Counted from the stretch's first letter, positions 447 to 24,398 are shown. The stretch is 24,398 bases of DNA from a virus (IMGVR_UViG_3300012979_000023:1-24398); one strand, 5' to 3'. Program-made: numbers and translations. Notes: generated by a model not told the origin, from the sequence alone.

Positions 447-1466
447 TTAGAGATTAGAAATTTTTCCTTTAATATACTTTAATTCTTTTTCTATCTTCTT
501 TTGGCTATCCACGAAGGTGCGGGCAAAATCTACTTGTAAATTAGAGATTTCAACTGTATCTCGTTCGCTTTCATAAGGATAACGGACTATTTTTACGACA
601 CGCTGATATTGTTTAATACGTTTAATCTTATCAACAATCATAACCGCGTCGCCAATAGAAACAGAATTACCTAATTTGGACAGGGTTAATTTATAACTTG
701 CTCTTGGCATTGCGATTTGATTAAGATAATTTTCTGCTTTGCGTTTTAAAATATCAGCGACCTCGATATCCTCATCAATCCATACTTTTTCAATATACTT
801 ATTGCTATAAGTAAAATTCTCTAAATAGTTTTTGTCATTATTAACTACCGCTATTGTTAATCCATCCTTTCCATAAGGGTAAAGGACAGTGGCATAATCA
901 TAAGTATTAGATTGTTTCTTCAATAATTTTAAGTTAAGTTCATTAGAGTAATAAGCCCCTAAATCACTACCTAAAAAATCATATACACGCATTATCTTAT
1001 TTTTTGTATCAAACCAAATATCGTGCCCACAATAGGCTCTTACGTCTTTTATAGCGTCCAGAGCAATTATATTGGCTTCTTGTTTAGTCATCATAGTTCT
1101 ATTTTCGCTATTATACTCCAATTGCCAATCAGTATTCCACAAACAATACTCATAAATAGATTGCGGGTTCATATCCAGACAGTCAAAATATTGGAATAGA
1201 GAGCCTTGAAGACTTTCAATATTAGGGCTACAAAAAACTTGAATATATTCGTTATCTTCATTAAGTATTTCTTTAATTACATAACTATAATCCTTGGTTT
1301 CTACATAATTTTCTTCTTGTAGAATTTCTAAATTATAATCATTACAAATGGCTTTGAAACGCAGGGATTTAGTCCCCGCGTCCAAAGTCTCAATTGTATG
1401 AACATCTTTTAGATTACTATCCAGTAGGGCAAGAAAATTATGCTCGGTGTCATACACTTTTATCAT
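447..1466 (-). CDS. Tail-tip protein, Tal N-terminal-domain type (phage minor structural protein N-terminal region, gp27-like); no C-terminal extension
   Basis: 339-aa ORF directly after the Dit-type genes. It starts 'MIKVYDTEHNFLALL...LRFKA...' and ends '...YKLTLSKLGNSVSIGDAVMIVDKIKRIKQYQRVVKIVRYPYESERDTVEISN', which resemble siphophage Tal / prophage-tail N-terminal domains from memory. Confidence 0.7.
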   Translation of the reverse strand: MIKVYDTEHNFLALLDSNLKDVHTIETLDAGTKSLRFKAICNDYNLEILQEENYVETKDYSYVIKEILNEDNEYIQVFCSPNIESLQGSLFQYFDCLDMNPQSIYEYCLWNTDWQLEYNSENRTMMTKQEANIIALDAIKDVRAYCGHDIWFDTKNKIMRVYDFLGSDLGAYYSNELNLKLLKKQSNTYDYATVLYPYGKDGLTIAVVNNDKNYLENFTYSNKYIEKVWIDEDIEVADILKRKAENYLNQIAMPRASYKLTLSKLGNSVSIGDAVMIVDKIKRIKQYQRVVKIVRYPYESERDTVEISNLQVDFARTFVDSQKKIEKELKYIKGKISNL

Positions 1467-1477
1467 AATTTTCCTCC

Positions 1478-1831
1478 TTAAATATAACGAGGGTTATATT
1501 CTATTGAAATGGATGCCTGTAATCCGTTATTAATTTTTACGACATTTCTGCCGGGTTTTAGTTTGGGGAATTCCCAGGCGTCATAAAGCCCAAACGCATT
1601 CTCGTCATTGACAAGAACCGTGCGGTTTTCGCCGTCAATAACTAAATTATCTCCCATTTTAATACCCGAAACATTAATAGGTTCGTCGCTTAAACCCTCT
1701 ATTGTTAATTTGATGAAATCCACCTTGGGGATAAAAGTAATTATACAAGGGGCTGGGGCAGTCCCGTTATTTACGATAACAAAACTGCTCCCAGTTTCAT
1801 CAAACTCTATTGGAAAATAATTTTGTTCCAT
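1478..1831 (-). CDS. Distal tail protein (Dit) C-terminal galectin-like domain, encoded as a stand-alone 117-aa protein
   Basis: Has its own AGGAGG RBS. Motifs 'VIVNNGTAPAPCIITF', 'GDNLVIDGENRTVLVN', 'WEFPKLKPGRNVV' and 'EYNPRYI' parallel the C-terminal half of canonical Dit proteins (e.g. the SPP1 gp19.1 pattern N-G-x-x-P-x-I ... GD-x-L-x-ID ... L-x-P-G-x-N). Confidence 0.7.
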   Translation of the reverse strand: MEQNYFPIEFDETGSSFVIVNNGTAPAPCIITFIPKVDFIKLTIEGLSDEPINVSGIKMGDNLVIDGENRTVLVNDENAFGLYDAWEFPKLKPGRNVVKINNGLQASISIEYNPRYI

Positions 1832-1848: not shown

Positions 1849-4800
1849 TTACAGAACTTCACTCGTATTGTTAGCGAGTTGTATCCAACCGCGACCAGTA
1901 TAAGCCCAGTCAGGATTGTTAGTGCTTACATAAGGAACAGTAATACGCTCGCCGTAAAGGTAAATGCCGAGTTTATATTCTTCATTTGCTATTGGCACAG
2001 AGTAGTAATTAGTATCTCTCGCAATTGCGTAGTTCTTATTTACTTCGGTGGTGTTAAGAGAAGTATAACTCTCTGGCACCCAGAAGGAACCATCAAAGTA
2101 ATAACGTCCATTATCTGTATCATAGTAATAATATGTAGTTAAGATATTAGAAGCATTACCATAAGAGTAAGTAGTGCCCTGTGCGTCTGCCGGATTAGTA
2201 TAAACATAGAAATTCATAGAATTATCTGCGTCATTAACCAAGCAGATACTCTGTTGTAGTTTAGTAAGTTTTAACTTATCAAACTCACCAGCGTAAATAG
2301 AAGAAGTTTTACTTTCGAACCATTGGTCGCAAGAGAAATACCATTCACCAACTACTCTATTGTCTGCGTCAGCAGTATATTTAGAAATAGGAATTATTAA
2401 GCCCGGCACTAATTGACGATTTTCAGGAGCATAAAGGTCAGGATACTGATAAGTTTGAACTTCACTATTGGTTTGAACAATATAATCTGCTTCGGTAGAA
2501 ACAAAGTCCCATCCATTGAAGTAATTATAAGGTTCGTCAATACTCTTATTGCGTAGAGCCACAATGCTATCAGGCACTGCCAAGAATTCACCCGTAATTA
2601 GATTATACCAGCCATTATCGGGTATTCGTAAATCTTCACCATTAAATCTATACCAAGTGCCTTTTGGAACGGGAACCCAATAGTCTCTAATTAAAAGATT
2701 TTCATAGACGCTAACATTATAACCTAATGTAGTAGAACCGCCATTCGTAAAATCTATATATTTAATATTGGTATATCTCATTTTATAAGCAGACGTAGTA
2801 TCTGCGATATCAGTTAAACTATCGTCGAACGGTTTAAACGCATACTTACCATATAGATTTGTATTATCTTTTATGATTTCAAATTTACTTGTGTCTGGAT
2901 TCCAGAAGAAATACTCATATGGTTTTTGTGTATATACATCTTGTGTGCCAACAACCACGTTAGTAGTATTTCGGCAATTAGATATATTGGCTTTTAAGCA
3001 TAAACCGGGGGTTATTTTTTCTGGAATTATTGGTGCCTTATATTTTATCGTAGTGCCTGGAAATGGTTCCATATCATTTTTAGTATTACGACCTCGTGTG
3101 GTTCCAATATTCACACTGGGCATATAATCATCTATTCGTAATGAAGTGCCCGCTGGAAGTCTTTTATTGGTTTCACCTGGTTGTGAAGCACTATAATAAT
3201 AACTATCAAATGTAGAAACATAAGGATAATCATCATAAGGAATATTGACAATTTCTACCGCATAATCAATATCATAAATATTATCAGTTGGAGGATAATC
3301 CGGATTATTTAAGTCTAATCTCAACTGAATATTGACTGGAATTTTTGTCCTCTCATTAGCAGGACCAATCTTGGGATGTTTAATCTTGTAAGTGTTTGGA
3401 TAGAAAGGAGCATATAGAACATATTGAGAACCAGTTCTAATTAACTCTTCAAATGAGAACACAATATCGCCAGAAGCGTCCCAAGAACGAGGGTTCCACA
3501 TATAAATGCCGTCAGGATAGCCCGCAGGTCTATACAAATTCTTATCAAAACCGAAATAATCCCAGGTTAAAGCGAGTGGAGTATCACGATAAAGTTGTGG
3601 ATTAATAGGCTGATTATTTTCATCTACACGCCAAGAGGTTTCAATGAAAATATCCCAGTCGGGGTTCCAATCACTCATAGAACAAGAGAAACCGGCACGA
3701 CCTAATTCATTAGCCTCGTTCTTATTATCCTGATAATAAATACAAGTATAATTATATACTGTTTCAGGATATACGAAATCTAATTCGTGAAGTGCGGAGA
3801 ATGCCTCGTAAGTATATTCACCGGTGTATTCATAATTAGTGAAATCGTGGAAACGTAGGCGTTTAGCTTCTGGGTAAATACCTACATCAGCCAAAGAAGT
3901 GGCAGTGCTAAAATCTATATCATTCAAATCGATTGCGGTTAAGCCTAACGCATTATACAACTTACCTGCCTGGTTAAAGGAAATATCTTCTGCCTTAACC
4001 CAACTCTCAACCTCTGGGATATAGCACCATAAGCGGTCGATAGTAAGTTTATTAATATGGACTTCACTCTTAAACGGAATAGTGGCAGTTGCTTCATCAG
4101 GAACATCGTAGTCTGGGTTCTGTCCAGGACCGGTCATAGGCTCGGTCGCACTTAACATAATCCAACCTACTGGATATTCTTTTAAGCGACCCCAACCATT
4201 ACGCTCTTCAATGATAGTGTAAGTATCACGTTCAATTATCATCGCAAGAGTTTGATATTTACGAGCAGGTCCTCTATGGATACCAGCGTATTTATTCAAT
4301 ACTCTTACCTGATAAGGAATGAAATATTCGAACTTTTCATCTTCGTAGAGAGCATCGTGATAGTGGTTGTAATATTTAATCGCACCATTGGGGTTCAATA
4401 CTACGCCGTCTAAATCACAATTTAAGTAATTGGGGTTTTCTTCATCCACAGTAATTAAATCAGTTTCATAAGCACCACCGCGATAATATTCTACGTATAG
4501 AATATTGTCTGCTTCATCCGCAGTAAATTTATCATAAACTACTATTGGAGATGGAGCGTCAATGAATGCCTGGATATTATTACTTGCGATAATATTTTCA
4601 TCAAATACTAATCGTCCGTGTTTGAATTTGTCATCATAGTATAGGTCTAAATCAATACCAAGGTCGGCTAAACTATTGGCGTTTTTGATATCTTCAATAG
4701 AGTAGAAAATATCTTTGGAGCCTATACGATAATTATCTTGATAATATACAACAGTCTTGGTGAATGTTCTTAATTTATAATAAATATTCGCCAAACCTAA

Positions 4801-7800
4801 TTCGTATATTTCTTTTAAGGACATACTCTGGAAGGAAAGGTCCGTGTCTAAATCTATCATACCATCCAAATGAAATTCATCAGGTTTATAGTCATTAAAA
4901 CGTAGCATATCTTCCAGGGTTTCTTCTTGTGGATTGTAATAGGTAGGAACATCTACATATTGATTGGCGATAAACGCGTTATCCCAATCATAGTAGTTTT
5001 CAGTAATTTTGCCGTAAATTAGTGGGTCATACATTACTTGGAGTGGTAATACTTCTTCTGGTTTAATAGTGATAACTTTTTGAGCCAACGCAAGATTGCC
5101 TTGGTCATTGATACCACTAAAATCATTCATAGTATATGTGCCACCCTCATTGCTATTACCAAAGAAGATTTCGGTGATTAAGTCAAATAAGCCATTAGCA
5201 GGCATTACATAATCAAAAATCTTGTCGCCTTCGGCTACGGGGATTAAATCACGAACAAGACGGTCTCTATCATAAAGTTTTAAACCCCATACATAGCATC
5301 CACCAACCTGCGGATATTGTGGCATTGGGAAACTGGCGTAGTTAATATTTCTGGTTTTAGAAACTGTTTGATAAATGATATTACCCTGTGTGTCAGTTCC
5401 TACGCCTTCCAAAGTTTCTATAACAATAGAACCGTAATTTTCATCTTCGTAAGGATTAGTTCCTATCACGGCACTCTCTAAATTGTTAGGAGTTCCCATA
5501 CCAGAAATGGCAGGGAATAACATCGGGTTGAAAGGCATTATATTAACTTTTCCGGTATTTGGATTGGTAGCCTGGAATAAAGTGAAAGAACCGCGAGGCT
5601 GTTCTCTTCCTTCAAAGAAGTCATTATCAGTATTTTCGAACTGAACTTGATAAGGAGAATTCATAGTATTTTTATTATAAATTTCAGCATAATTATTATA
5701 CGCGTCTATAATAAAGGTAAAAGGATTACCAAATACTTTTCTTACGGCTGGATTAACTTCTTCTCCCATCTGTCCTGTGCGTCCTAAACAAGAAAGCCAA
5801 CCACCTAATTTAGTTTCACTCGGGAAAGGTATATCTATTTTTTGAGAAATACCATAAAAATTAAACGCATCAATTTCATTATAATTATCATCGTAGGTGC
5901 GGGCTACACCTCTACGATAGCCTCCCATTAAACCAATAGCAGATATAGGCACGTCAGCACCAGGATTAGTAGGACCGCCGGCACCGGTATAATAAGTAAA
6001 ACCATCGAAAGTCTGTGGTCCCAAAGCCGTATAAACCCAACTGCTTACAACAGGAATACGAGGACGCATAGAGAATGTGCCCTTTCCTTTTGCTCCATAA
6101 AATGGGTAATCTGTAATATCAAATGTTTCTCCAAGAGGTGTAGTAATAGTAGTTCCATAAGGACGTTGGCTATTAGGGATAGTATTTAATGGAGCGTGAT
6201 AACCCATAAAATTCAAATAGTCAAAACTCTGTGCTCCATAAGATTGTCTGGCAACTGCCTGGGTCAATCCTAATTCTTTTTGTGTGTAGCCTAAACCAAG
6301 AGCATATCCAGTGAATTCTACACGAAGTCTGCCGATTTCTTTTGGGCGATATCCTAAATCAATATAAGGAATGCGTCCCGCCACAGTGCTTAAATGGTTA
6401 AGAATACTATGAGAAGTTGAAGTATCAAATCCCCAATATAGCACTTTCTGTTCATAAGATGCGTTTTCAGGGTCATCAGGCTCAATTAAAGTCTCATAGA
6501 CAATCGCGATTTCTTCGGCATTAACTAAATCTTCAAATGAATACCAACGAGATGGGTCAGCGAGCATACCGCCACCGCAAATAACAGGCTTAAACTTATT
6601 AATTAATTCATTTGGTAATGTATCTACCATTTGAATTGGGTATTCATAAGTATCAATTGCGAACTCCCAAGAGGTAGAAGCAATTAGATTAGCCTCATCA
6701 ACTTCGTCAGTATAATAATTGATATCTACATATTGTGGTTCTGGGGCATACCAAATTGTGTATGTAGGTTTCAAATCTTCTGGCTTATCGAGTCGTTCGT
6801 CCATACGATACCACTCATAAGTTTCGCCATCCACATAATAGTTTTCTGGTTTTTTAGCATTGAAATCAATATAGAAGTCAATATACTCACCTTCACGGAA
6901 ATCAGACTGGTCAAAAGTCAAAGTTTCAGTGCCGACTACTTCATAAGTGCGGATGCCGAATACCTTCTTGATATAACGGATTACTGTGCTGTAAGTCTGT
7001 GGCTCTTCTTCCATAGGTTTATAGACAATCTCATAAGGAGAATATTCTAAAACACGAGAAAGAGAAACACGTTTGCCAGGATACACAAAATCTGTCTGAT
7101 AGCCTTCTGGCTTATGTTTATTTAAACGAACGATATCGCCAAAAGTAGGAACTTGATAGAAATCACGCTCGCTAATTGGGATAACTTCTTCGCTAATAAT
7201 AGTTCTTGTGCCGTCTAATTCTTCTCTAATATAATTGACGTTGATGAAATTGTTTTGCTCCTGATAAACAACATTGAAAGTCTTATTGTTAAGATTATCA
7301 AAATTAATTACAAAAGGAGTTTCTAATTCCTTAATAACGCCAGGGTTATAATAAGCCGGCTGGTATTTATCTACATTAAATTCTACATAGGGGTCCCATT
7401 CTTTTTCGCCAGTAAAATCATTACCGCGGAACCAAACCGTCATAGTCTGGAATAGGTTATCACCCTTATAGTAATTAACATAGCAATGTCCAATAGTGTG
7501 TTCCAAGTTAGTATCGGTGTATCTATCATCATCGATAATATTGAAACTATTTAATTTAGTGCCGTCTTCGAAGAAGGTCTGGCTTACTTTATCATATAAG
7601 CAATTGCTTGGGGCGACTTGATTACCAATCTTGTCATAGAACTGAACTGGAATAAAATCGCGGATTAGAACATCACCTTGATAAATACGGCAACTATAAA
7701 TACCAATACCCGCTAATCCATCAGCATAAGAACCGGAGTTATTATTGGCGAATAGATATAATGGATAAGGCATCTGGGCACTCTCGGTTTGTAATTTATT

Positions 7801-10383
7801 AGTATAAGTAAAAATTACGTTGGAGTAGCCTGCTTGTGCGGAAGAATAAATACCAGAGTTAGAGCCGAAGCCGATTGCGTTATCCTCTGTTAAGGTAAGC
7901 ATATTAGTATTCTTACCTGCCTTGGCTTCATAGGTATTGACTCCCGTTAAGTTGGTGCCATACTGCGTCTGGTTATTAAAACGCATAAAATAAGAGCCTT
8001 GATTGCTGGTGCTACCAAATAGGTAAGCATAACCGGCATTTACTTCGTGTAATGGCACATAATTATCTACACGCTTACATTCCATAATAACTGTCAATTT
8101 AGACATATCAGTAGTAGATACGCCAGTATTAATAAACGCGTGGTTTAAAGTCCATTCGGGATGTAAGTGCTCATAATCGCCTAAATCGTTATGTTGTAAG
8201 AATAAGAAGCGATGTGGATAGTCAATTCCATCAGGGTCTTCTGGTTCAACCTCTTTGATATATACAACATCAACAGAACTTAAATCCAGAAGGGCAGAGA
8301 AATTAACTGGACCATTGTATTGTAGAATGCCGTCGCCCGCATAGCCTGGCTTATAAGCATTTAAGTCTAATCCTAAATCAAATAGAGTAGTGCCTAATTC
8401 AAAATCAATTACTCGATAAGTTATATTAGAACTACCTATCCAGTTCATATCCGCTACTTCGTCGATATAATAGCGGACTGGGGTTTTATATTCAGTCGCT
8501 AAATATAGGACATCATAAGCAGAGCCTAAACTCTCAAAATCCATTAGAGCAGTAGAACTATACTTATCAATAATGCCGGGTTCATAATATTCGGGACGAT
8601 ATAGGTCTAAATTAATAATATCCTTTAAACGAATACCACCGACTACATCGGCTTCATTAATAGTAATAATACTTGTATTAATTGTGCTATAAGCACTACT
8701 TAATTCTTGTCTATATTTAACAATAATGTTCTTGGTTCTTAATTCTACAATCTCACTATACAAGATAATAATAGGAGATGCTTGTGTTAGTGCGGAAAGT
8801 GAAACTTCGCCGTCATAAGAAGCCAATTCATCAAATTGATATCCTTCCGGTCTATGTAAAGAAATAGGAATAATATCATTTAAAATTGGGTTATTTAAGA
8901 ACATTAAAGCATTAATTTCTATACGCTCTTCAACTGGGGTGCTATCAAAAGAACCAGTATAATATCTCACTACAATTGGGAAATTAATTTCCTTATAGTA
9001 GATTTGTAGTATGCCGGCATTCATAACACTATGATAAGTCTCATAAGTATCAGCATTATAAAGAGCACCCTCTTCATACTCACTGGTATGATACTTATCT
9101 AAATTAAGGTTCATATCACGGACTACATCAAAATCAGTTTCAAATGCGTCCATATATTTAGTAGTAATTGTGTTAGTTGCTACACGATACCAATTGGGGT
9201 AAGTGCCAACGTAGTATTCTACATAAAGAGTATTTTCGGTTCTATTATAACGCACCACATAAGATAGTCCAAGAGTATCATAAGTGATAGTATCATTCTC
9301 GCCAAAATCTACGACGAAACCTTCATTAAAATAGCCACCTTCTGGGCGGAATGCGTTTAAACGAATAATATCTTTCAGGGTCATACCTTCAATGATATCG
9401 CTTTCCCGCACACTCAATACAGCAGTGTCTATTAACTCATAGGTGCCGTCATCTTGTTCCTTTTCATAGCGAACTGTAATGTTTTTACTTTCCTCATTTT
9501 CTATCTTTTGGAAATATACGTTAATTGGGCTGGCTTGTAGCAATGCCTCAACTGTTAATTCGCCGTCATATCCAACAGATGCTTTGTAGCCTTCTGGTTT
9601 ATAGGTTTTTACTTCTACCAATTGGCTAATAGAATTAATATTCTTTAACTCCGGATAAGTGAAAGAAATAATGCGAGACAATAGTTCATTGTAATATCCT
9701 GTGCCGTCGTCCATATAATAAGCAACATTTAAATTGTAAGATATGGGAGCATAATTAATAATAAGGGCACTCAAAGATTGTAAGTTTTCATAGTTGAGTT
9801 CAATACCACCCAAATTAGTGGCAACACCCATATTATAATATTGAGGCAGATATTTATTTACATCCACGCCGATGCTTTCTAATGTATTACCTTCTTCTTC
9901 AAAAGAAGACGCTCGAATAGTAATACTTTCAGTTGCCAATAGAGTAGAATTATTCTGGTAATAAACTACCGTTAATTTAAAAGAATTCGTCATATTGGCG
10001 TTGGTAGTATAAATTTCTCGTGAGCCCTTGGCGTAATCACTTGTTAGAGTATAACTAACAACAAAATTACCATTTTTAAGACGATTAGGTTTAGATGCTC
10101 CTTGTAGGCTCACATCAAACAGCAAACTTAAATCATCAAATTGTAGGGTAGCCTTTTTAAGCATCTGGGTTAGACGACTTATTCTCATAAAGGCTTCTTC
10201 TTCATCGGCACACAATACTAAAAATTCTAATTCGATAGTCTTAAATCTATCTTGTTGTCTAATGGCAGTAGGTTGAATATCACCATCCAACCAATCTTCC
10301 ATAGTATCAACTTTATTACTATTTAAGACACGATTATAGAGTTGTATGCCGAGACTGCTTAAATCAATGCCGTTAATTAACAT
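1849..10383 (-). CDS. Giant 2,844-aa tail-tip adhesin. It has a Dit-like N-terminal domain (aa 1-~128), about 16 repeats of ~83 aa (MucBP/beta-grasp-like), three lectin/jelly-roll-like modules, and SH3b-like modules
   Basis: Single uninterrupted 8,535-nt ORF. The N-terminus 'MLINGIDLSSLGIQLYNRV...IELEFLVLCADEEEA...LQFDDLSLLFDV' is Dit/Sipho_tail-like. A motif '(Y/H/F)(K/R)P(E/G)(G/Y)Y' recurs at aa 262, 346, 511, 596, 678, 1007, 1090, 1177, 1832 and 2284. 'L(I/V)RD(F/L/Y)(I/W)PV' occurs at aa 905, 1708 and 2563. An SH3b-like segment lies at aa 2022-2080. Confidence 0.9.
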   Translation of the reverse strand: MLINGIDLSSLGIQLYNRVLNSNKVDTMEDWLDGDIQPTAIRQQDRFKTIELEFLVLCADEEEAFMRISRLTQMLKKATLQFDDLSLLFDVSLQGASKPNRLKNGNFVVSYTLTSDYAKGSREIYTTNANMTNSFKLTVVYYQNNSTLLATESITIRASSFEEEGNTLESIGVDVNKYLPQYYNMGVATNLGGIELNYENLQSLSALIINYAPISYNLNVAYYMDDGTGYYNELLSRIISFTYPELKNINSISQLVEVKTYKPEGYKASVGYDGELTVEALLQASPINVYFQKIENEESKNITVRYEKEQDDGTYELIDTAVLSVRESDIIEGMTLKDIIRLNAFRPEGGYFNEGFVVDFGENDTITYDTLGLSYVVRYNRTENTLYVEYYVGTYPNWYRVATNTITTKYMDAFETDFDVVRDMNLNLDKYHTSEYEEGALYNADTYETYHSVMNAGILQIYYKEINFPIVVRYYTGSFDSTPVEERIEINALMFLNNPILNDIIPISLHRPEGYQFDELASYDGEVSLSALTQASPIIILYSEIVELRTKNIIVKYRQELSSAYSTINTSIITINEADVVGGIRLKDIINLDLYRPEYYEPGIIDKYSSTALMDFESLGSAYDVLYLATEYKTPVRYYIDEVADMNWIGSSNITYRVIDFELGTTLFDLGLDLNAYKPGYAGDGILQYNGPVNFSALLDLSSVDVVYIKEVEPEDPDGIDYPHRFLFLQHNDLGDYEHLHPEWTLNHAFINTGVSTTDMSKLTVIMECKRVDNYVPLHEVNAGYAYLFGSTSNQGSYFMRFNNQTQYGTNLTGVNTYEAKAGKNTNMLTLTEDNAIGFGSNSGIYSSAQAGYSNVIFTYTNKLQTESAQMPYPLYLFANNNSGSYADGLAGIGIYSCRIYQGDVLIRDFIPVQFYDKIGNQVAPSNCLYDKVSQTFFEDGTKLNSFNIIDDDRYTDTNLEHTIGHCYVNYYKGDNLFQTMTVWFRGNDFTGEKEWDPYVEFNVDKYQPAYYNPGVIKELETPFVINFDNLNNKTFNVVYQEQNNFINVNYIREELDGTRTIISEEVIPISERDFYQVPTFGDIVRLNKHKPEGYQTDFVYPGKRVSLSRVLEYSPYEIVYKPMEEEPQTYSTVIRYIKKVFGIRTYEVVGTETLTFDQSDFREGEYIDFYIDFNAKKPENYYVDGETYEWYRMDERLDKPEDLKPTYTIWYAPEPQYVDINYYTDEVDEANLIASTSWEFAIDTYEYPIQMVDTLPNELINKFKPVICGGGMLADPSRWYSFEDLVNAEEIAIVYETLIEPDDPENASYEQKVLYWGFDTSTSHSILNHLSTVAGRIPYIDLGYRPKEIGRLRVEFTGYALGLGYTQKELGLTQAVARQSYGAQSFDYLNFMGYHAPLNTIPNSQRPYGTTITTPLGETFDITDYPFYGAKGKGTFSMRPRIPVVSSWVYTALGPQTFDGFTYYTGAGGPTNPGADVPISAIGLMGGYRRGVARTYDDNYNEIDAFNFYGISQKIDIPFPSETKLGGWLSCLGRTGQMGEEVNPAVRKVFGNPFTFIIDAYNNYAEIYNKNTMNSPYQVQFENTDNDFFEGREQPRGSFTLFQATNPNTGKVNIMPFNPMLFPAISGMGTPNNLESAVIGTNPYEDENYGSIVIETLEGVGTDTQGNIIYQTVSKTRNINYASFPMPQYPQVGGCYVWGLKLYDRDRLVRDLIPVAEGDKIFDYVMPANGLFDLITEIFFGNSNEGGTYTMNDFSGINDQGNLALAQKVITIKPEEVLPLQVMYDPLIYGKITENYYDWDNAFIANQYVDVPTYYNPQEETLEDMLRFNDYKPDEFHLDGMIDLDTDLSFQSMSLKEIYELGLANIYYKLRTFTKTVVYYQDNYRIGSKDIFYSIEDIKNANSLADLGIDLDLYYDDKFKHGRLVFDENIIASNNIQAFIDAPSPIVVYDKFTADEADNILYVEYYRGGAYETDLITVDEENPNYLNCDLDGVVLNPNGAIKYYNHYHDALYEDEKFEYFIPYQVRVLNKYAGIHRGPARKYQTLAMIIERDTYTIIEERNGWGRLKEYPVGWIMLSATEPMTGPGQNPDYDVPDEATATIPFKSEVHINKLTIDRLWCYIPEVESWVKAEDISFNQAGKLYNALGLTAIDLNDIDFSTATSLADVGIYPEAKRLRFHDFTNYEYTGEYTYEAFSALHELDFVYPETVYNYTCIYYQDNKNEANELGRAGFSCSMSDWNPDWDIFIETSWRVDENNQPINPQLYRDTPLALTWDYFGFDKNLYRPAGYPDGIYMWNPRSWDASGDIVFSFEELIRTGSQYVLYAPFYPNTYKIKHPKIGPANERTKIPVNIQLRLDLNNPDYPPTDNIYDIDYAVEIVNIPYDDYPYVSTFDSYYYSASQPGETNKRLPAGTSLRIDDYMPSVNIGTTRGRNTKNDMEPFPGTTIKYKAPIIPEKITPGLCLKANISNCRNTTNVVVGTQDVYTQKPYEYFFWNPDTSKFEIIKDNTNLYGKYAFKPFDDSLTDIADTTSAYKMRYTNIKYIDFTNGGSTTLGYNVSVYENLLIRDYWVPVPKGTWYRFNGEDLRIPDNGWYNLITGEFLAVPDSIVALRNKSIDEPYNYFNGWDFVSTEADYIVQTNSEVQTYQYPDLYAPENRQLVPGLIIPISKYTADADNRVVGEWYFSCDQWFESKTSSIYAGEFDKLKLTKLQQSICLVNDADNSMNFYVYTNPADAQGTTYSYGNASNILTTYYYYDTDNGRYYFDGSFWVPESYTSLNTTEVNKNYAIARDTNYYSVPIANEEYKLGIYLYGERITVPYVSTNNPDWAYTGRGWIQLANNTSEVL

Positions 10384-10386
10384 TAA

Positions 10387-10572
10387 TTAAATTCCTCCTT
10401 GTCTTTGGACTTCTAATCCAATGTTATTTAACATAGAGGCATTTTGTTCCTCTTGGCTGGGGGCAGACTGTTGAGTTTCTCTTATTACTGTGTCTATATT
10501 TCCACTACTGGAAGTATTTGTAAAGGTTTGTTCAGTCTGCTGTTGAATTAATGACATTACATTTTTTTCCAT
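10387..10572 (-). CDS. Hypothetical Q/S/T-rich 61-aa protein in the tape-measure position
   Basis: ORF with ATG 2 nt after the stop of the upstream gene, ending 1 nt before the giant ORF start. Low-complexity sequence with no recognisable family; coding status rests on tight packing only. Confidence 0.45.
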   Translation of the reverse strand: MEKNVMSLIQQQTEQTFTNTSSSGNIDTVIRETQQSAPSQEEQNASMLNNIGLEVQRQGGI

Positions 10573-10574
10573 AA

Positions 10575-11090
10575 CTATACCTCATTAATCCCTAATTTGT
10601 TAAAAATTTCTTGTCTCTCTTTTAAGGAACCGCCACTGTATCCTTTATCCTCTTTAAGATAAATAGGGTCTTTAATATTTTTCAAGGCTTGACCTACTGC
10701 TAATTTAGTTAAATTTGCTTCCATCTCTTTACGAGTTAAATACCCTTCATATGCGTCTTCAATTTCTTTTGGCGTCATCTTAAAAAAATCAGCGGGGGCT
10801 ATTCCCATTTCGCCTACGGCTTTGGTATATAACCCCCCTATATCAAAAAAGGATGTGAGGGATTGAGGAATGGCTGACATAATACCGGGCATTAAATTAC
10901 CCTCATCAACTGCCGTTTTGACAAGAGCAATTTCTTCATTTGTAATGTCAGGGTGCTGGCTGATTAACCCACAATACAAAATGAATTCGGTATTTTGTTC
11001 CTCACATAGATTTAAATTTTGAGCCAATAGACTTAAACCTTTCAGCCCAAATTTGACCTCAAAATATTTTTGAGGAGTTCTAATAATCAT
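10575..11090 (-). CDS. Tail assembly chaperone-like protein (171 aa); possibly a chaperone fused to a minimal tape-measure-like helical tail
   Basis: Lies immediately downstream of the major tail protein gene (ATGA overlap). The N-terminal 'YFEVKFGLKGLSLLAQNL...ILYCGL' resembles gpG-type chaperones; the C-terminal half is predicted helical by composition. Family not verified. Confidence 0.5.
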   Translation of the reverse strand: MIIRTPQKYFEVKFGLKGLSLLAQNLNLCEEQNTEFILYCGLISQHPDITNEEIALVKTAVDEGNLMPGIMSAIPQSLTSFFDIGGLYTKAVGEMGIAPADFFKMTPKEIEDAYEGYLTRKEMEANLTKLAVGQALKNIKDPIYLKEDKGYSGGSLKERQEIFNKLGINEV

Positions 11091-11476
11091 TTCCGTTCTA
11101 ACGGACCTGTGCCTAAAATGGAAATATTATATTTGAATTGTTTATCAAATACCGCAGTTAAAGGGAAATTTGTAATTAAACCTGTCCCCTTAAAATGAAT
11201 ATCATTTATAATAATTTCCACTTCAATTCCAGCGTTAGACATAAAAGCCTCTTCCAAAAGAGAGAGAGAATTAGAATTGGCTAAATAAATACCATTACAC
11301 TGGATATTCCACATTTTTAGACCGTCCATATTTTCAGCCCATTCCGCTTTGATTTTATTAGTAATTTCAATTGGGGTCATAGACTGATTGAGGGTCGCTC
11401 CTGTTTGTCCGCCTACCGGCTCTTTATTTACATAAAGAATTACATCAATTCCCTTTTGGGCTGGATTAAATGTCAT
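11087..11476 (-). CDS. Major tail protein, TP901-1/Phage_tail_2 type (129 aa from the internal ATG)
   Basis: The track ORF extends to 11566, but AGGAGGAAGAAGATA-ATG at 11476 gives 'MTFNPAQKGIDVILYVNKEPVGGQTGATLNQSMTPIEITNK...WNIQCNGIYL...FKGTGLITNFPLTAVFDKQFKYNISILGTGPL', the typical pattern of this family. The upstream extension overlaps the preceding gene and looks non-coding. Confidence 0.8.
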   Translation of the reverse strand: MTFNPAQKGIDVILYVNKEPVGGQTGATLNQSMTPIEITNKIKAEWAENMDGLKMWNIQCNGIYLANSNSLSLLEEAFMSNAGIEVEIIINDIHFKGTGLITNFPLTAVFDKQFKYNISILGTGPLERK

Positions 11477-11867
11477 TATCTTCTTCCTCCTTTGCGGAAT
11501 AAGTAAGAAGAAAAGTATATCTAATAACACCGTGCTTGCGGATTGGACCAGTCCCATTGTCATCAATAATACGAGCAGATTGTTGATTCGCCGAAATGAT
11601 ATATGGATTAGTCTCTCTTAAATATACTATATTGCGGTTTATGTTTTCAATAATTTCTAATATTTCTTTTTCGCCTGAATAAGTAGAATATACATCCAAC
11701 ATAAAACTAACAGTTTCGGTGGTGGTATCAAATGATTGGCTAATTTGATGCCCGTCTGTGCGGAGCATCAACCAAGGAAATAATTCTTTATATTCTCCAC
11801 TGTCTGTAATATGATAGCCGAGTTTTTGAATTAATTCGTAAAATTGGCGTTTAAGTTCTAAAACCAT
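11466..11867 (-). CDS. Putative tail completion / tail terminator protein (133 aa)
   Basis: Lies directly upstream of the major tail protein gene. Size and position match SPP1 gp17-like / gpU-like proteins; sequence similarity was not confirmed by eye. Confidence 0.5.
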   Translation of the reverse strand: MVLELKRQFYELIQKLGYHITDSGEYKELFPWLMLRTDGHQISQSFDTTTETVSFMLDVYSTYSGEKEILEIIENINRNIVYLRETNPYIISANQQSARIIDDNGTGPIRKHGVIRYTFLLTYSAKEEEDNDI

Positions 11868-12616: not shown

Positions 12617-12835
12617 TTACACCTCGCTATGTAAATCCTCCACGTGCTGGGCTAACATAGCCTCTTTCTTTTCTAACTCATAGACACGCTCAATAACATT
12701 ATTATGAAGATTTACTTTTTTTTCTAATTGTTCAAGGCGATAATTAGTTAATCGAGCAGACGCAATAACACCTAAAATAGAGCCCAAAGCAGTGCCCAAA
12801 AAACCAATTATCGCGATAATTATTGTCTCACTCAT
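12617..12835 (-). CDS. Small membrane-anchored coiled-coil protein (72 aa; one N-terminal TM helix)
   Basis: 'TIIIAIIGFLGTALGSILGVIA' is a hydrophobic helix. It is followed by a heptad-like charged region 'RLEQLEKKVNLHNNVIERVYELEKKEAMLAQHVEDL'. Confidence 0.65.
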   Translation of the reverse strand: MSETIIIAIIGFLGTALGSILGVIASARLTNYRLEQLEKKVNLHNNVIERVYELEKKEAMLAQHVEDLHSEV

Positions 12836-12846
12836 TTCTATTTACC

Positions 12847-13314
12847 TCATTTATTATAAAAAATATTAATTGATGTGGCTTTATATACATTTAATGAAAA
12901 ATTTAACGTTAAAGTCATATCTTCATAAGTAGCAGAGGTAAAATATTTACCAGAAGAGTAAGAATTACTTGTATTTTGATATACTACATTAATTCCGGTT
13001 CCATCATAATAAAGAACCAGAGGGTATCGAACCGCACTTATGTTCAAACCGGAACTATCGTTCGCACATACCATTAAAGCCATAAAAGGCGTATCAGCAG
13101 AAGGTAAATAATCTTCTAAATACCAACTAATAGTAGCACTGCCTACATCACCACGAGTAAGTTGTAGATATTCTAATTCGCCTCCGCCAGTAGTCAAATT
13201 AGAAATTGCCGTAGCCATATTTAATGGAGCAATAAGCCCAGTCTCTCCGGTTTTAGAACGAATAGCATCACCAATAGAAGTTAGAGTGCTTTCTTCAATA
13301 AATACTTTACTCAT
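12847..13314 (-). CDS. Fibre-associated protein 2 (155 aa), sharing the N-terminal 'IGDAIR-KTG' motif with the 381-aa LRR protein
   Basis: 'LTSIGDAIRSKTGETGLIAPLNMATAISNLTTGGG' aligns with 'LSAIGDAIREKTGKEDLLTLDQMPEEIKGISGGG' of the 13823-14968 product. The start codon overlaps the stop of the collagen-like gene (TAATG). Confidence 0.7.
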   Translation of the reverse strand: MSKVFIEESTLTSIGDAIRSKTGETGLIAPLNMATAISNLTTGGGELEYLQLTRGDVGSATISWYLEDYLPSADTPFMALMVCANDSSGLNISAVRYPLVLYYDGTGINVVYQNTSNSYSSGKYFTSATYEDMTLTLNFSLNVYKATSINIFYNK

Positions 13315-13808
13315 TAATAAGCACCCTCCTCTGCGACGCCAATAGCGGATAGAGAAGCATCAATCATAGCCTGAATTTCAGTTGCGGTTTTAAATTGTGA
13401 AACATCAGGAATTTGGATTTCTGCTTTTACCTCATTAACTAAATCTTGCTTTTCGGATTCCGTCCAATAATCTACGCCCTTGACGGGGGCTGGTCCGGTT
13501 AATCCCTGGGGTCCCTCTGGACCCGTTGGTCCTTGAATTCCTTCCGGTCCTCTTTCCCCTTGGGGACCCTGTGGTCCCATTTCGCCCTGCGGTCCTTGTG
13601 GTCCTATCGGTCCCGCAGGTCCAGTTAAACCGATAGGTCCTTGTTCCCCCGGCATACCTTGAAGACCCTGTATTCCTTGGTCTCCTTTGGGACCTTGCGG
13701 TCCTATTGAACCCTGTGGTCCCGCAGGACCTTCTGGACCCTGGGCACCCATAATGGTCATAATTTCCTGCCATTCATTGGAGGCATTCTTAAATTTTAAA
13801 ACACTCAT
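13314..13808 (-). CDS. Collagen-like repeat protein 2 (164 aa; 29 uninterrupted G-X-Y triplets)
   Basis: G-X-Y run '[25 protein letters not shown]...GPQGLTGPA', followed by '[18 protein letters not shown]...[10 protein letters not shown]'. The DNA shows GGN-CCN periodicity at 13490-13745. Confidence 0.9.
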
Positions 13809-13822
13809 TTAGGCATCCTCCT

Positions 13823-15688
<1,866 letters not shown>

Positions 15689-22955: not shown

Positions 22956-23594
22956 TTACTTAATGTCGGCATAACTTTCCGCCACAAAATATAATGTCTT
23001 TGTCGGCACTGGAATTTCTTTGCCGTCCTCGGTATAATGAATAGCATAATATTCATCATAAGAAATTATTCCTTCCTCCTGGAATAATTTAAGTGTTTCA
23101 GTAATCATAGCACTAATTGCTTTATTGTCTCGTGAATATCCAAGACGTTCGGCAATTTCATAATTGCGGAATACATATAGTTCGTGATTTTGTTTTTTCC
23201 ACATAAACCAGTCCAATAGGATGGTATAAATTCTTAACATTTGCTTTTGGCGGAATGTCGTTAATTTTAATATCATATCTCTGTCAATTAATTTATACTT
23301 ATCTTCTGGATTTTGCGGAAAAACGTAATTATTACCTTCTTCTGCGATTAAGCCTTTTTCAATTAATTTATCCATATGCCGTTTTAATTGGGCTCGTCCG
23401 CTGAAATCACAAGTAGCGTAAATTGTAGGACGCAGTTGTGCGTAGTTCCTTTTAGATAGATATAATTTATCCCCATCATAAGTCGCATAATAATACAATA
23501 AACCGTATAATAAATCATTAGTTTCATAATTCATAAAATTCGCCTCCAATGATATACGACGCTGATAGGGTTTAATAGTAGTTAATTGTGCCAT
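22956..23594 (-). CDS. Putative replication initiator / replisome-organizer-like protein with two winged-helix-like segments (212 aa)
   Basis: 'RAQLKRHMDKLIEKGLIAEEGNNYVF' and 'YEIAERLGYSRDNKAISAMITETLKLFQEEGIISY' look like two wHTH units. It is the first gene after the strongest promoter and is adjacent to the iterons. Family unverified. Confidence 0.5.
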   Translation of the reverse strand: MAQLTTIKPYQRRISLEANFMNYETNDLLYGLLYYYATYDGDKLYLSKRNYAQLRPTIYATCDFSGRAQLKRHMDKLIEKGLIAEEGNNYVFPQNPEDKYKLIDRDMILKLTTFRQKQMLRIYTILLDWFMWKKQNHELYVFRNYEIAERLGYSRDNKAISAMITETLKLFQEEGIISYDEYYAIHYTEDGKEIPVPTKTLYFVAESYADIK

Positions 23595-23834: not shown

Positions 23835-23863
23835 ATTATACCATTTTTTTTCTGTGAGGTCAA
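23835..23863 (-). promoter_or_regulatory. Near-consensus sigma-70/SigA promoter with extended -10 (candidate early/main promoter)
   Basis: Minus strand: TTGACC (23863-23858), a 17-nt spacer, then TGgTATAAT (-10 at 23840-23835). The -35 overlaps the TGA stop of the HNH gene. Confidence 0.8.
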
Positions 23864-24398
23864 ATTTGTGCCTCTTTTGGGTCAGGCTCTTCCGCAAGCG
23901 TGAAATAACCAATTTTAAATGGACTTCGTGCTCGGTGAATATTAGATGAAATCTGGGCTTTGGATAAACCTGTAATTTCGTGTGCCTCATTAATACTACT
24001 GAACTCTTGGATAATTTCCCCTGTTTCAGTATCTCTTAACACTATTGGAGTAGAAGCCCATTTAATAGTAAAATTATATCCGTAAGGACGAATGTTATTA
24101 CGATTTTCCTGTTTAGTGGCAAACCGCAAATTCTTATAATAATTATTATAATGACATCTATCAATATGGTCTATATAAATTCTACCTGCTTCTTCATCAT
24201 AGCCTTCGCAAAAATGTTTTGCGACAACACGATGAATTTTATAAAAACGCTTCTTTTTTCCGAAATTAATTGTGGCATATCCTTCTTTATCGTAATAAAG
24301 GGCACGGATACAACCTGTTTCAATATTACGAATACGACCAAAATTTGAAACTTCATAAGTTGGTTCTTCTGTAAATTGCTTCCAAATTTCTTCTTCGC
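23860..24398 (-). CDS. HNH homing endonuclease, C-terminal part (HNH_3 core plus NUMOD1/IENR1-like HTH). 24276-24398 duplicates the part already listed at 1-123
   Basis: The frame is open from the window edge: '...EGYATINFGKKKRFYKIHRVVAKHFCEGYDEEAGRIYIDHIDRCHYNNYYKNLRFATKQENRNN...IQEFSSINEAHEITGLSKAQISSNIH...'. 'HR..DHID..NN..NLR..T..EN' is the HNH_3 signature. The track's 89-aa ORF (TTG start) is only its tail. Confidence 0.85.
   Translation of the reverse strand, partial: EEEIWKQFTEEPTYEVSNFGRIRNIETGCIRALYYDKEGYATINFGKKKRFYKIHRVVAKHFCEGYDEEAGRIYIDHIDRCHYNNYYKNLRFATKQENRNNIRPYGYNFTIKWASTPIVLRDTETGEIIQEFSSINEAHEITGLSKAQISSNIHRARSPFKIGYFTLAEEPDPKEAQI
24276..24398. repeat. Terminal direct repeat, copy B (identical to 1..123)
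   Basis: See copy A; exact 123-nt identity. Confidence 0.95.

Follow-up and report, generated by a model that had tools for sequence, protein, structure and literature searches.

A giant phage protein that probably joins an adhesin-like arm to the ring domain of a distal tail protein divided between two genes

At the end of the phage tail tube, the distal tail protein (Dit) assembles into a hexameric ring from which its C-terminal domain points outward (PMC7291167). Classical representatives, such as gp19.1 of SPP1, ORF46 of TP901-1, and ORF15 of p2, have about 230 to 300 amino acids (aa). In the Dits described as evolved, which are single polypeptides, loops of the galectin domain carry one or two inserted carbohydrate-binding modules (CBMs) (PMC7291167, PMC9437275). 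Such proteins are known from Lactobacillus phages J-1 and PL-1, from Lactococcus phages, and from phages of Streptococcus thermophilus, and six copies around the tail tip bind cell wall saccharides. The S. thermophilus versions have about 500 aa, and their CBMs project by about 60 Å (PMC7291167, PMC9437275). We analyzed a 24,398-bp stretch of viral DNA (IMGVR_UViG_3300012979_000023:1-24398; "the window" below means this whole stretch), in which a single minus-strand open reading frame (ORF) at positions 1849 to 10383 encodes a protein of 2,844 aa. In our assessment, this giant protein is likely to be the ring-forming half of a Dit divided between two genes, with an adhesin-like arm attached to it, such that six monomeric arms on the tail hub would be the main adhesion device of the phage.

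The closest described systems each share part of this arrangement. Classical Dits resemble the giant in their ring domain, which is up to 43% identical between the giant and classical Dits of uncultured phages, and Dits with solved structures are matched by fold. The position of the gene directly upstream of Tal is also shared, and the window system likewise has a galectin-type C-terminal domain (PF22768). In contrast to the classical system, the window encodes the ring and galectin domains as two genes, has 2,714 extra residues on the ring half, and has 61 aa in the tape measure protein (TMP) slot, where classical TMPs span hundreds of residues. With the evolved Dits, the giant shares the use of the Dit hub as a platform for adhesion modules. 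Its modules, however, come behind the ring domain rather than within a galectin domain, which here stands apart, and the beta-grasp extension is many times longer. The galectin loops hold no inserted CBM, PF22768 being intact in a separate ORF of 117 aa.

The nearest described precedent for a ring domain with a long C-terminal part is ORF25 of Eggerthella lenta phage PMBT5, an 817-aa protein of which only the N-terminal region is Dit-like and which was found in virions by mass spectrometry (PMC9394477). PMBT5 is a cultured gut siphophage, and its ORF25 was matched in BFVD by our model of the giant. Like the giant, it combines a Dit ring domain with a long non-Dit C-terminal part, but it is about 3.5 times shorter and is encoded behind a recognizable TMP, and no detached galectin gene is reported for it. 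The arm, in turn, resembles the MucBP/Mub adhesins (YwfG of L. lactis and Mub of L. reuteri), which also combine one or more lectin-type modules with beta-grasp repeats in an elongated monomeric rod. The solved fragment of YwfG consists of a lectin, a mucin-binding domain, and a MubR repeat arranged head to tail in a rod of 40 by 180 Å. Whereas these adhesins are anchored to the bacterial cell wall by LPXTG, the giant is predicted to be anchored to the phage tail hub by its Dit ring. Finally, lambda gpM, T5 pb9, and the Hcp-like L15 and L16 of ceduoviruses, Dits that consist of the ring only or have a different C-terminal domain, show that the ring scaffold can do without a galectin domain or carry another domain in its place (PMC7291167, PMC12474359). 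In none of them, however, is the galectin domain encoded by a gene of its own, and none has an arm of several thousand residues. Searches of the open-access literature found no split Dit and no Dit of comparable size. The GenBank phage collection likewise yielded none of such size, in keeping with the original prediction, made from the window sequence alone, whose author knew of no such protein.

The giant ORF (8,535 nucleotides) runs without interruption from an ATG start codon, preceded by an AAGGAGG Shine-Dalgarno (SD) sequence, to a TAA stop codon. Its product has a computed mass of 326 kDa and is acidic (pI 4.4), with 8.9% Tyr, 7.6% Asn, 7.4% Thr, and 7.3% Asp. The public source contig, k141_1829592 of ENA ERZ27246411 (24,416 bp), contains the window sequence in rotated form and carries a 141-bp terminal direct repeat. 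This repeat implies a circular genome of 24,275 bp, of which the giant ORF makes up 35.2%; the window is longer than the circular genome by 123 bp. Translation and circular assembly thus agree with the initial description of one uninterrupted minus-strand ORF occupying 35% of a genome of about 24.3 kb, and the computed mass and composition agree with the arms of roughly 320 kDa, rich in Tyr, Asn, Asp, and Thr, that it had envisaged. A search with the whole protein returned 237 protein clusters at E ≤ 1e-3. The homologues among the 120 clusters listed are 51 to 83% identical to the giant and have 2,826 to 2,990 aa. They are encoded on contigs of mostly 22 to 28 kb, approximately, from ENA, Logan, JGI, and NCBI. 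A family of giants fused to Dit, raised earlier as something to be looked for, therefore exists, with full-length homologues in more than 200 clusters.

Residues 1 to about 130 of the giant (9994 to 10383, minus strand) correspond to the N-terminal ring, or belt, domain of Dit. An exhaustive HMMER search (phmmer) with residues 1 to 180 returned 111 proteins, all aligned from about their own first residue. These were other giants and, in addition, proteins of 226 to 243 aa. Seven of the short proteins were scanned: all seven matched the Dit family phrog_33, and six matched PF22768 at about residues 140 to 235. The best of the short matches (P0140) is a classical Dit of 236 aa, encoded between a recognizable TMP and Tal, whose residues 4 to 139 align with residues 3 to 128 of the giant at 43% identity (E = 2e-34). 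An AlphaFold2 model of residues 1 to 300 had a mean predicted local distance difference test (pLDDT) score of 78. Its disordered or low-confidence stretch at residues 23 to 46 would, as we read the model, be the expected place of the belt arm, which would become ordered only in the hexamer. Foldseek matched this model in the PDB to Dit chains of the monocin tip, TP901-1, NF5, p2, Douge, and 80alpha, each with a probability of 0.97 to 1.0, as well as to lambda gpM. Among the viral models of BFVD there were many matches named "Distal tail protein." A sequence profile search of the PDB with the N-terminal alignment yielded nothing significant, and the GenBank phage collection contained no match to the DNA or to the first 300 aa of the giant. 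The position of the gene agrees with the homology, with Tal (PF06605) downstream past the 117-aa ORF and the 61-aa ORF upstream. Together, the sequence relatives and the structural matches confirm that residues 1 to about 130 are a genuine Dit ring domain, and with it the Dit-like N terminus that had been read from the sequence. The gene had also been placed in a joint TMP/Dit slot. The Dit position stands, but the TMP is not replaced by the giant, as a separate ORF lies upstream.

Because the tube protein and Hcp have the ring-domain fold as well (PMC7291167), a match of folds is not in itself proof of hub function, and direct profile searches do not call the N terminus of the giant a Dit. 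Both points would suit a tail fiber or adhesin that has borrowed a Dit-like adaptor and is present in fewer copies or at another site, while a different protein forms the hub ring. We consider this unlikely, because the sequence relatives of the domain, which reach 43% identity, are true Dits encoded between TMP and Tal, and because the giant itself lies exactly in the Dit slot, between a putative TMP remnant and Tal. Furthermore, Pfam and PHROG scans found no other ring-domain gene in the complete 24.3-kb genome, whose sole other Dit piece lacks the ring.

That genome encodes small and large terminase subunits, portal, scaffold, capsid, connectors, tube, Dit, and Tal. This complement argues against a defective, satellite-like, or tailocin-like element in which the giant would serve as an adhesin for cell-cell or particle-cell targeting. 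Such an element would fit the candidate vestigial TMP and the fact that genome-wide Pfam and PHROG scans recognized no TMP, endolysin, holin, integrase, or DNA polymerase, with only weak matches to replication initiators. Small lysis genes, however, are often missed by profile searches, the assembly is circular, and the family recurs on contigs of mostly about 22 to 28 kb from many samples. Scans of 185,579 species-representative genomes revealed no integrated copy, and nothing points to a prophage state. We regard a nonautonomous element as improbable.

The second half of the Dit lies directly downstream of the giant, in the 117-aa ORF (1478 to 1831, minus strand). Its product matches PF22768, the SPP1_Dit C-terminal domain, over profile positions 1 to 97 of 97 without insertion (E = 2.5e-12), and it also matches the Dit family phrog_33. 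No galectin-like domain is found on the giant polypeptide itself; the PF22768 domain is encoded by the 117-aa gene. Residues 133 to 236 of P0140, the classical Dit whose first half aligns with the N terminus of the giant, align with the 117-aa protein at 40% identity (E = 1e-26), so that two genes of the window together reconstitute one Dit.

That the two products jointly cover a whole classical Dit could also be expected if the giant were an ordinary evolved Dit with a huge galectin insertion, the stop codon between the genes being a sequencing error or a programmed frameshift or read-through site. Insertion-bearing Dits are common in phages of Gram-positive bacteria, and in one relative (locus L004, described below) the detached galectin ORF carries an insertion of about 95 aa. 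We nevertheless give this explanation very little chance, and it is already largely refuted by the organization of the junction. The giant and the 117-aa ORF are separated by TAA aat AGGAGG tcaaacct ATG, with the SD sequence at 1840 to 1845, and this stop-SD-ATG arrangement is kept in all 10 of the family loci that hold the 3' end of the giant gene. The relative reading frames of the two genes vary among these loci, which excludes a frameshift fusion at a fixed site. All 120 of the listed homologues of the 117-aa protein are stand-alone proteins of 104 to 122 aa, and the PF22768 profile is complete in the window copy. In addition, the strand at the junction of the two Dit domains is present in both genes, as EIYTTN in the giant and as SFVIVN in the 117-aa ORF. 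This doubled strand hints at a duplication followed by reciprocal loss. By homology, then, the Dit is split over two genes, with the ring half in the giant and the galectin half in the 117-aa ORF. The original prediction had missed this split, and its comparison with evolved Dits needs correction: the giant is not one of them, as the galectin half is a separate gene and the added modules follow the ring domain.

In relatives with shorter arms, the Dit ring domain continues into 607 to 1,054 aa with InlB-B-repeat (Flg_new_2) domains. A detached galectin ORF adjoins in two of them as well (L003, analyzed through ORF and HMM scans, and L004), and a tiny ORF again occupies the TMP slot. The giant is thus an extreme member of a wider split-Dit clade. 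In L004, the detached galectin-domain protein (5618 to 6262, plus strand) has 214 aa, and its match to the hidden Markov model (HMM) of the Dit C-terminal domain is split by the insertion of about 95 aa; this may be an evolved galectin domain in the form of a stand-alone protein.

A repeat-driven concatenation or chimera, suggested by the repetitive protein and by a source that is a short-read metagenome assembly, is refuted for practical purposes, because the repeats are diverged in the protein and absent from the DNA, and more than 200 independent clusters keep length and domain order at 51 to 83% identity (among the 120 listed). Specifically, there are no tandem repeats at the DNA level within the giant ORF, and the sole direct repeat inside it is 35 nucleotides long and 71% identical, so that repeat-driven misassembly has no substrate. 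The giant ORF is confirmed as a real gene, neither a chance ORF nor a misassembly, and its internal repeats are old and diverged at the protein level.

We detected these repeats, and the homology between modules, with HMMs built from tiles of the protein and with an iterated repeat HMM. The latter identified about 17 copies, some of them partial, of a repeat of about 83 aa, close to the 16 or so copies counted earlier from the sequence. The copies form four blocks. Block 1 (aa 131 to 715; 8239 to 9993) has 7 to 8 units, with repeat starts at aa 112, 197, 277, 363, 449, 528, 609, and, less completely, 694. Block 2 (aa 956 to 1300; 6484 to 7518) has about 4 units (955, 1027, 1107, 1196, and a partial start at 1282), block 3 (aa 1781 to 1960; 4504 to 5043) about 3 (1777, 1855, and 1936), and block 4 (aa 2136 to 2335; 3379 to 3978) 1 to 2, with copies at 2191 and, in part, at 2136 and 2310. 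The two repeats covered by the model (aa 135 to 300) had pLDDT values of 75 to 94 in 10-residue blocks. Their top Foldseek match in the PDB was the Mbp/MubR region of YwfG, and the tandem Ubl domains of ISG15 and an Ig-binding protein of R. gnavus were matched as well; a BFVD match is named "MucBP domain-containing protein." As modeled, the repeats thus qualify as tandem ubiquitin-like beta-grasp domains resembling MucBP and MubR. None of the profiles PF06458 (MucBP), PF09479, or PF18998 (Flg_new) matched the giant or 15 family members; PF18998 (Flg_new_2) was seen only in the shorter-armed relatives P0141, P0150, and P0155.

Between the repeat blocks lie larger modules, all on the minus strand like the rest of the gene. 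Module A (aa 716 to 955; 7519 to 8238) is a conserved, putative beta-sandwich and a candidate lectin-type binding module. Module B (aa 1301 to 1780; 5044 to 6483) has 480 aa and no Pfam match, and its C-terminal 60 aa or so are homologous to module A. A highly conserved SH3b-like region (aa 1961 to 2135; 3979 to 4503) follows block 3. The last segment, aa 2336 to 2844 (1852 to 3378), holds module C (2336 to about 2610) and the distal C-terminal domains. A homologous C-terminal half is common to the three modules, at aa 890 to 945 (approximately), 1693 to 1755, and 2534 to 2598. The module A HMM matches aa 1693 to 1755 of module B with an E value of 2.8e-12, and tile HMMs tie aa 2534 to 2598 of module C to both A and B. 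Near the C terminus, aa 2777 to 2816 gave a weak match to Mu-transpos_C_2 (E = 0.0085 to 0.058). The notion of a beta-rich extension built like beads on a string holds.

Conservation is unevenly distributed along the arm. Across relatives, mean identity is 74% in module A and 75% in the SH3b-like region, and the ring domain also belongs to the set conserved at 69 to 75%. In contrast, the mean is 41% in module B, 21% in module C, and 46% at the distal C-terminal end. The same is seen in a single comparison: the window and relative P0026 are 40% identical over aa 2336 to 2844 versus 76% directly upstream. Low distal conservation is the pattern expected if the tip of the arm determines specificity, and the fast-evolving last segment is a candidate specificity determinant. 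In individual scans of 15 family members, the only domain detected was a true SH3_3, in 5 of them (E down to 3e-16), as an extra inserted domain without counterpart in the window. Relatives P0026, P0043, and P0119 have one or two additional SH3_3 domains inserted near the position of window aa 2215 or so. These insertions show gain and loss of modules along the arm.

To place the giant in its tail module, we compared the window with two classical relatives, L022 and L024, which share head and neck genes with it. All three have a major tail (tube) protein, encoded in the window at 11087 to 11566 on the minus strand (PF06199 Phage_tail_2, phrog_1407; 129 aa in the public gene call). The tail assembly chaperone position, which in the relatives holds two ORFs of about 110 and 90 aa, is taken in the window by one ORF of 171 aa (10575 to 11090, minus strand). 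Its residues 87 to 168 share 39% identity with the second of the chaperone-size ORFs in L024 (E = 6e-17), and residues 2 to 79 weakly resemble the first one in L022 (E = 0.03). It is a fusion of the two, with a G-like N-terminal and a T-like C-terminal half. The 171-aa ORF had no match in the GenBank phage collection, and a homology search gave only unannotated orthologues. The public gene call reads through its TAG stop codon (10575 to 10577) to yield 177 aa. The tape measure position is occupied by a TMP of 664 or 967 aa in the relatives and by the 61-aa ORF (10387 to 10572, minus strand) in the window; the Dit position by a protein of 232 or 238 aa in the relatives and by the giant ring half followed by the 117-aa galectin half in the window. 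The Tal of the relatives has 620 or 726 aa, whereas that of the window (447 to 1466, minus strand) has 339 aa and comprises the structural N-terminal core only, PF18994 and PF06605 together spanning aa 2 to 317. After Tal, L024 has a 753-aa gene of the size of a receptor-binding protein (RBP), the L022 locus ends in Tal, and the window has no structural gene.

The 61-aa ORF is a candidate vestigial TMP that would keep only the C-terminal motif of a TMP. Its position between chaperone and Dit fits that identity; its length of 61 aa, compared with 664 to 967 aa, does not. Together with its orthologues of 51 to 80 aa, it has a C-terminal motif of approximately [ML]xNx[LIM][AG]L..[QKR]R that is also found at the extreme C termini of real TMPs, and pairwise comparisons of the orthologues with TMP C termini gave E values of 0.003 to 0.006. 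When an HMM of TMP C termini was run on 1,250 six-frame segments, four of the five top matches were tiny ORFs in the TMP slot. The 61-aa ORF had no PHROG or Pfam match, and pairwise BLAST of the 61-aa and 171-aa ORFs against one TMP C terminus found nothing. The giant and the 61-aa ORF share a reading frame, with TAA and one codon between them (TAA TTA ATG; 10384 to 10389). A read-through fusion of the two was considered and rejected, as the corresponding genes of relative L002 overlap by one base in different frames.

Elsewhere in the genome, two collagen-like ORFs of 164 aa (13314 to 13808) and 134 aa (14955 to 15359), both on the minus strand and both matching PHROG "tail fiber" families, lie with two orphan ORFs among the head-tail joining genes (12847 to 15359). 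The orphan of 155 aa (12847 to 13314, minus strand) follows the 164-aa collagen-like ORF, and that of 383 aa (13823 to 14974, minus strand) follows the 134-aa one. These genes may encode neck or head fibers and a second host-binding system. A 72-aa protein that, as we read the sequence, has a hydrophobic N-terminal stretch (12617 to 12835; phrog_1863, a family of unknown function) could be a holin. An ORF of 212 aa (22956 to 23594), with weak matches to ScpB and to replication initiators, is the only candidate for a replication-type gene. The window boundary (about 23860 to 24398 and 1 to 175) cuts through an HNH/NUMOD4 endonuclease gene, which has 196 aa in the public call. Two other ORFs separate this gene from the terminase genes, upstream of which it lies. 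Two family members in IMG/VR come from sheep rumen metagenomes.

Relatives of the giant differ in their use of stop codons. The window and relatives L002, L014, and L018 use the standard code. In ten others (L006 to L012 and L015 to L017), the giant gene is one frame in which the only in-frame stop codons are TAG, with 3 to 37 per gene and the maximum of 37 in L016. In L013, by comparison, only TGA occurs in frame, 6 times in 1,455 codons. Of 91 TAG cases, 21 align with a Gln in the window protein, for example the invariant Q44, and 3 of 4 TGA cases align with a Trp, such as W31. No tRNA genes were found in the 10 loci scanned, which were mostly partial and included the complete L001. To judge from these alignments, a single phage family appears to use three genetic codes.

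Taken together, these results suggest how the tail tip might be built and used. By analogy with solved Dit hexamers, six copies of residues 1 to about 130 would assemble into a hexameric hub, closing the end of the tube and docking the trimer of Tal. Where a classical Dit enters its galectin domain, the chain would instead run outward from the ring into a monomeric arm of 2,714 residues. The product of the 117-aa ORF would supply the galectin domain in trans by binding to the ring. In the arm, the 17 or so beta-grasp domains would act as spacers in the style of Gram-positive surface adhesins, and the three putative beta-sandwich modules, the SH3b-like region, and the fast-evolving distal part are candidate binders of cell wall structures or glycans. 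With a Tal reduced to its core and followed by no RBP gene, host capture would fall mainly to the six arms, acting through multivalent avidity. With YwfG as a yardstick (180 Å per 484 residues), a fully extended arm would measure about 100 nm. TMP length reportedly sets tail length at about 1.5 Å per residue, as in work on lambda gpH. At that ratio a remnant of 61 aa would give a tail about 10-fold shorter than in classical relatives, whose TMPs of 664 to 967 aa lead one to expect roughly 100 to 145 nm, with the arms supplying reach. We can thus picture, tentatively and with rather more doubt than attaches to the ring-and-arm reading, a phage with a tube only a few rings long, a TMP of about 50 to 80 residues, and six arms of about 326 kDa that extend for up to about 100 nm. 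It would belong to an abundant uncultured lineage, living at least partly in the rumen, of which the shorter-armed relatives (607 to 1,054 aa) would represent intermediate stages.

Several observations weigh against the reading of the giant as the ring half of a split Dit whose arms are the main adhesion device, the whole case for which comes from sequence analysis; the sixfold stoichiometry, the binding function, the arm length, and the short tail are all predicted. When the giant was scanned directly with Pfam and PHROGs, as a whole and as six tiles, no Dit family was matched, and the Dit assignment was reached through intermediate sequences and a monomer model whose Foldseek E values were modest, at about 1e-4 to 1e-5. 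The supply of the galectin domain in trans is putative. In the same scans of the giant there was no match to a MucBP, lectin, or SH3 family. For module A, the AlphaFold2 model is all-beta with a pLDDT of 51. Foldseek gave no significant match to it, with a best E value of 0.12 and a weak list made up mostly of receptor-binding domains of BoNT. Comparison of the module A alignment with PDB profiles was likewise not significant (E = 0.23 to a CBM). The three lectin-like modules proposed earlier are therefore borne out as three modules with a homologous C-terminal half, but as lectins the label is no more than suggestive. For the SH3b-like modules proposed along with them, the window has at aa 2007 to 2077 a weak match to the "amidase" family phrog_1794 (profile positions 253 to 324 of 336, E = 1e-3) and none to the Pfam SH3 domain PF08239 (SH3_3), a true SH3_3 being confined to relatives. 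The 61-aa ORF of the window itself gave weak scores (E = 0.69 with the TMP C-terminal HMM, and a further E value of 2.4), so that its relation to TMPs depends on orthologues and synteny. Scans of the 185,579 bacterial genomes with the N terminus of the giant and with P0140 found no relative. Finally, the two collagen-like fiber genes could also bind the host, and the giant is not necessarily the only fiber. The original prediction of host recognition without separate RBP genes accordingly fits the region after the short Tal, where no RBP gene is found, but may not hold for the genome as a whole, in which two fiber-type genes exist.

The tail tips of siphophages and tailocins have Dit as their conserved hub, and adding binding modules to this hub is a main way in which host range evolves in phages of Gram-positive bacteria. 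The family described here indicates that the two Dit domains are separable into two genes and that an arm attached to the ring domain can be several times as long as the entire evolved Dits of S. thermophilus phages. A Tal extension and an RBP are absent from the tail module, which would fit a takeover of their role by the arm, and 35% of a 24-kb genome is spent on one protein. The putative vestigial TMP, in turn, predicts a tail roughly 10-fold shorter than in close relatives that share its head genes. For annotation, a ring domain joined to other sequence and followed by a stand-alone PF22768 gene can serve as the signature of a split Dit. The family is common in public metagenomes and invisible to Pfam and PHROGs, and its arms are a candidate for a large untapped set of cell wall-binding modules. 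If our reading is true, these phages would have an undescribed way of building a host attachment device; if their tail is drastically shortened as well, they might represent a morphologically new kind of "siphovirus."

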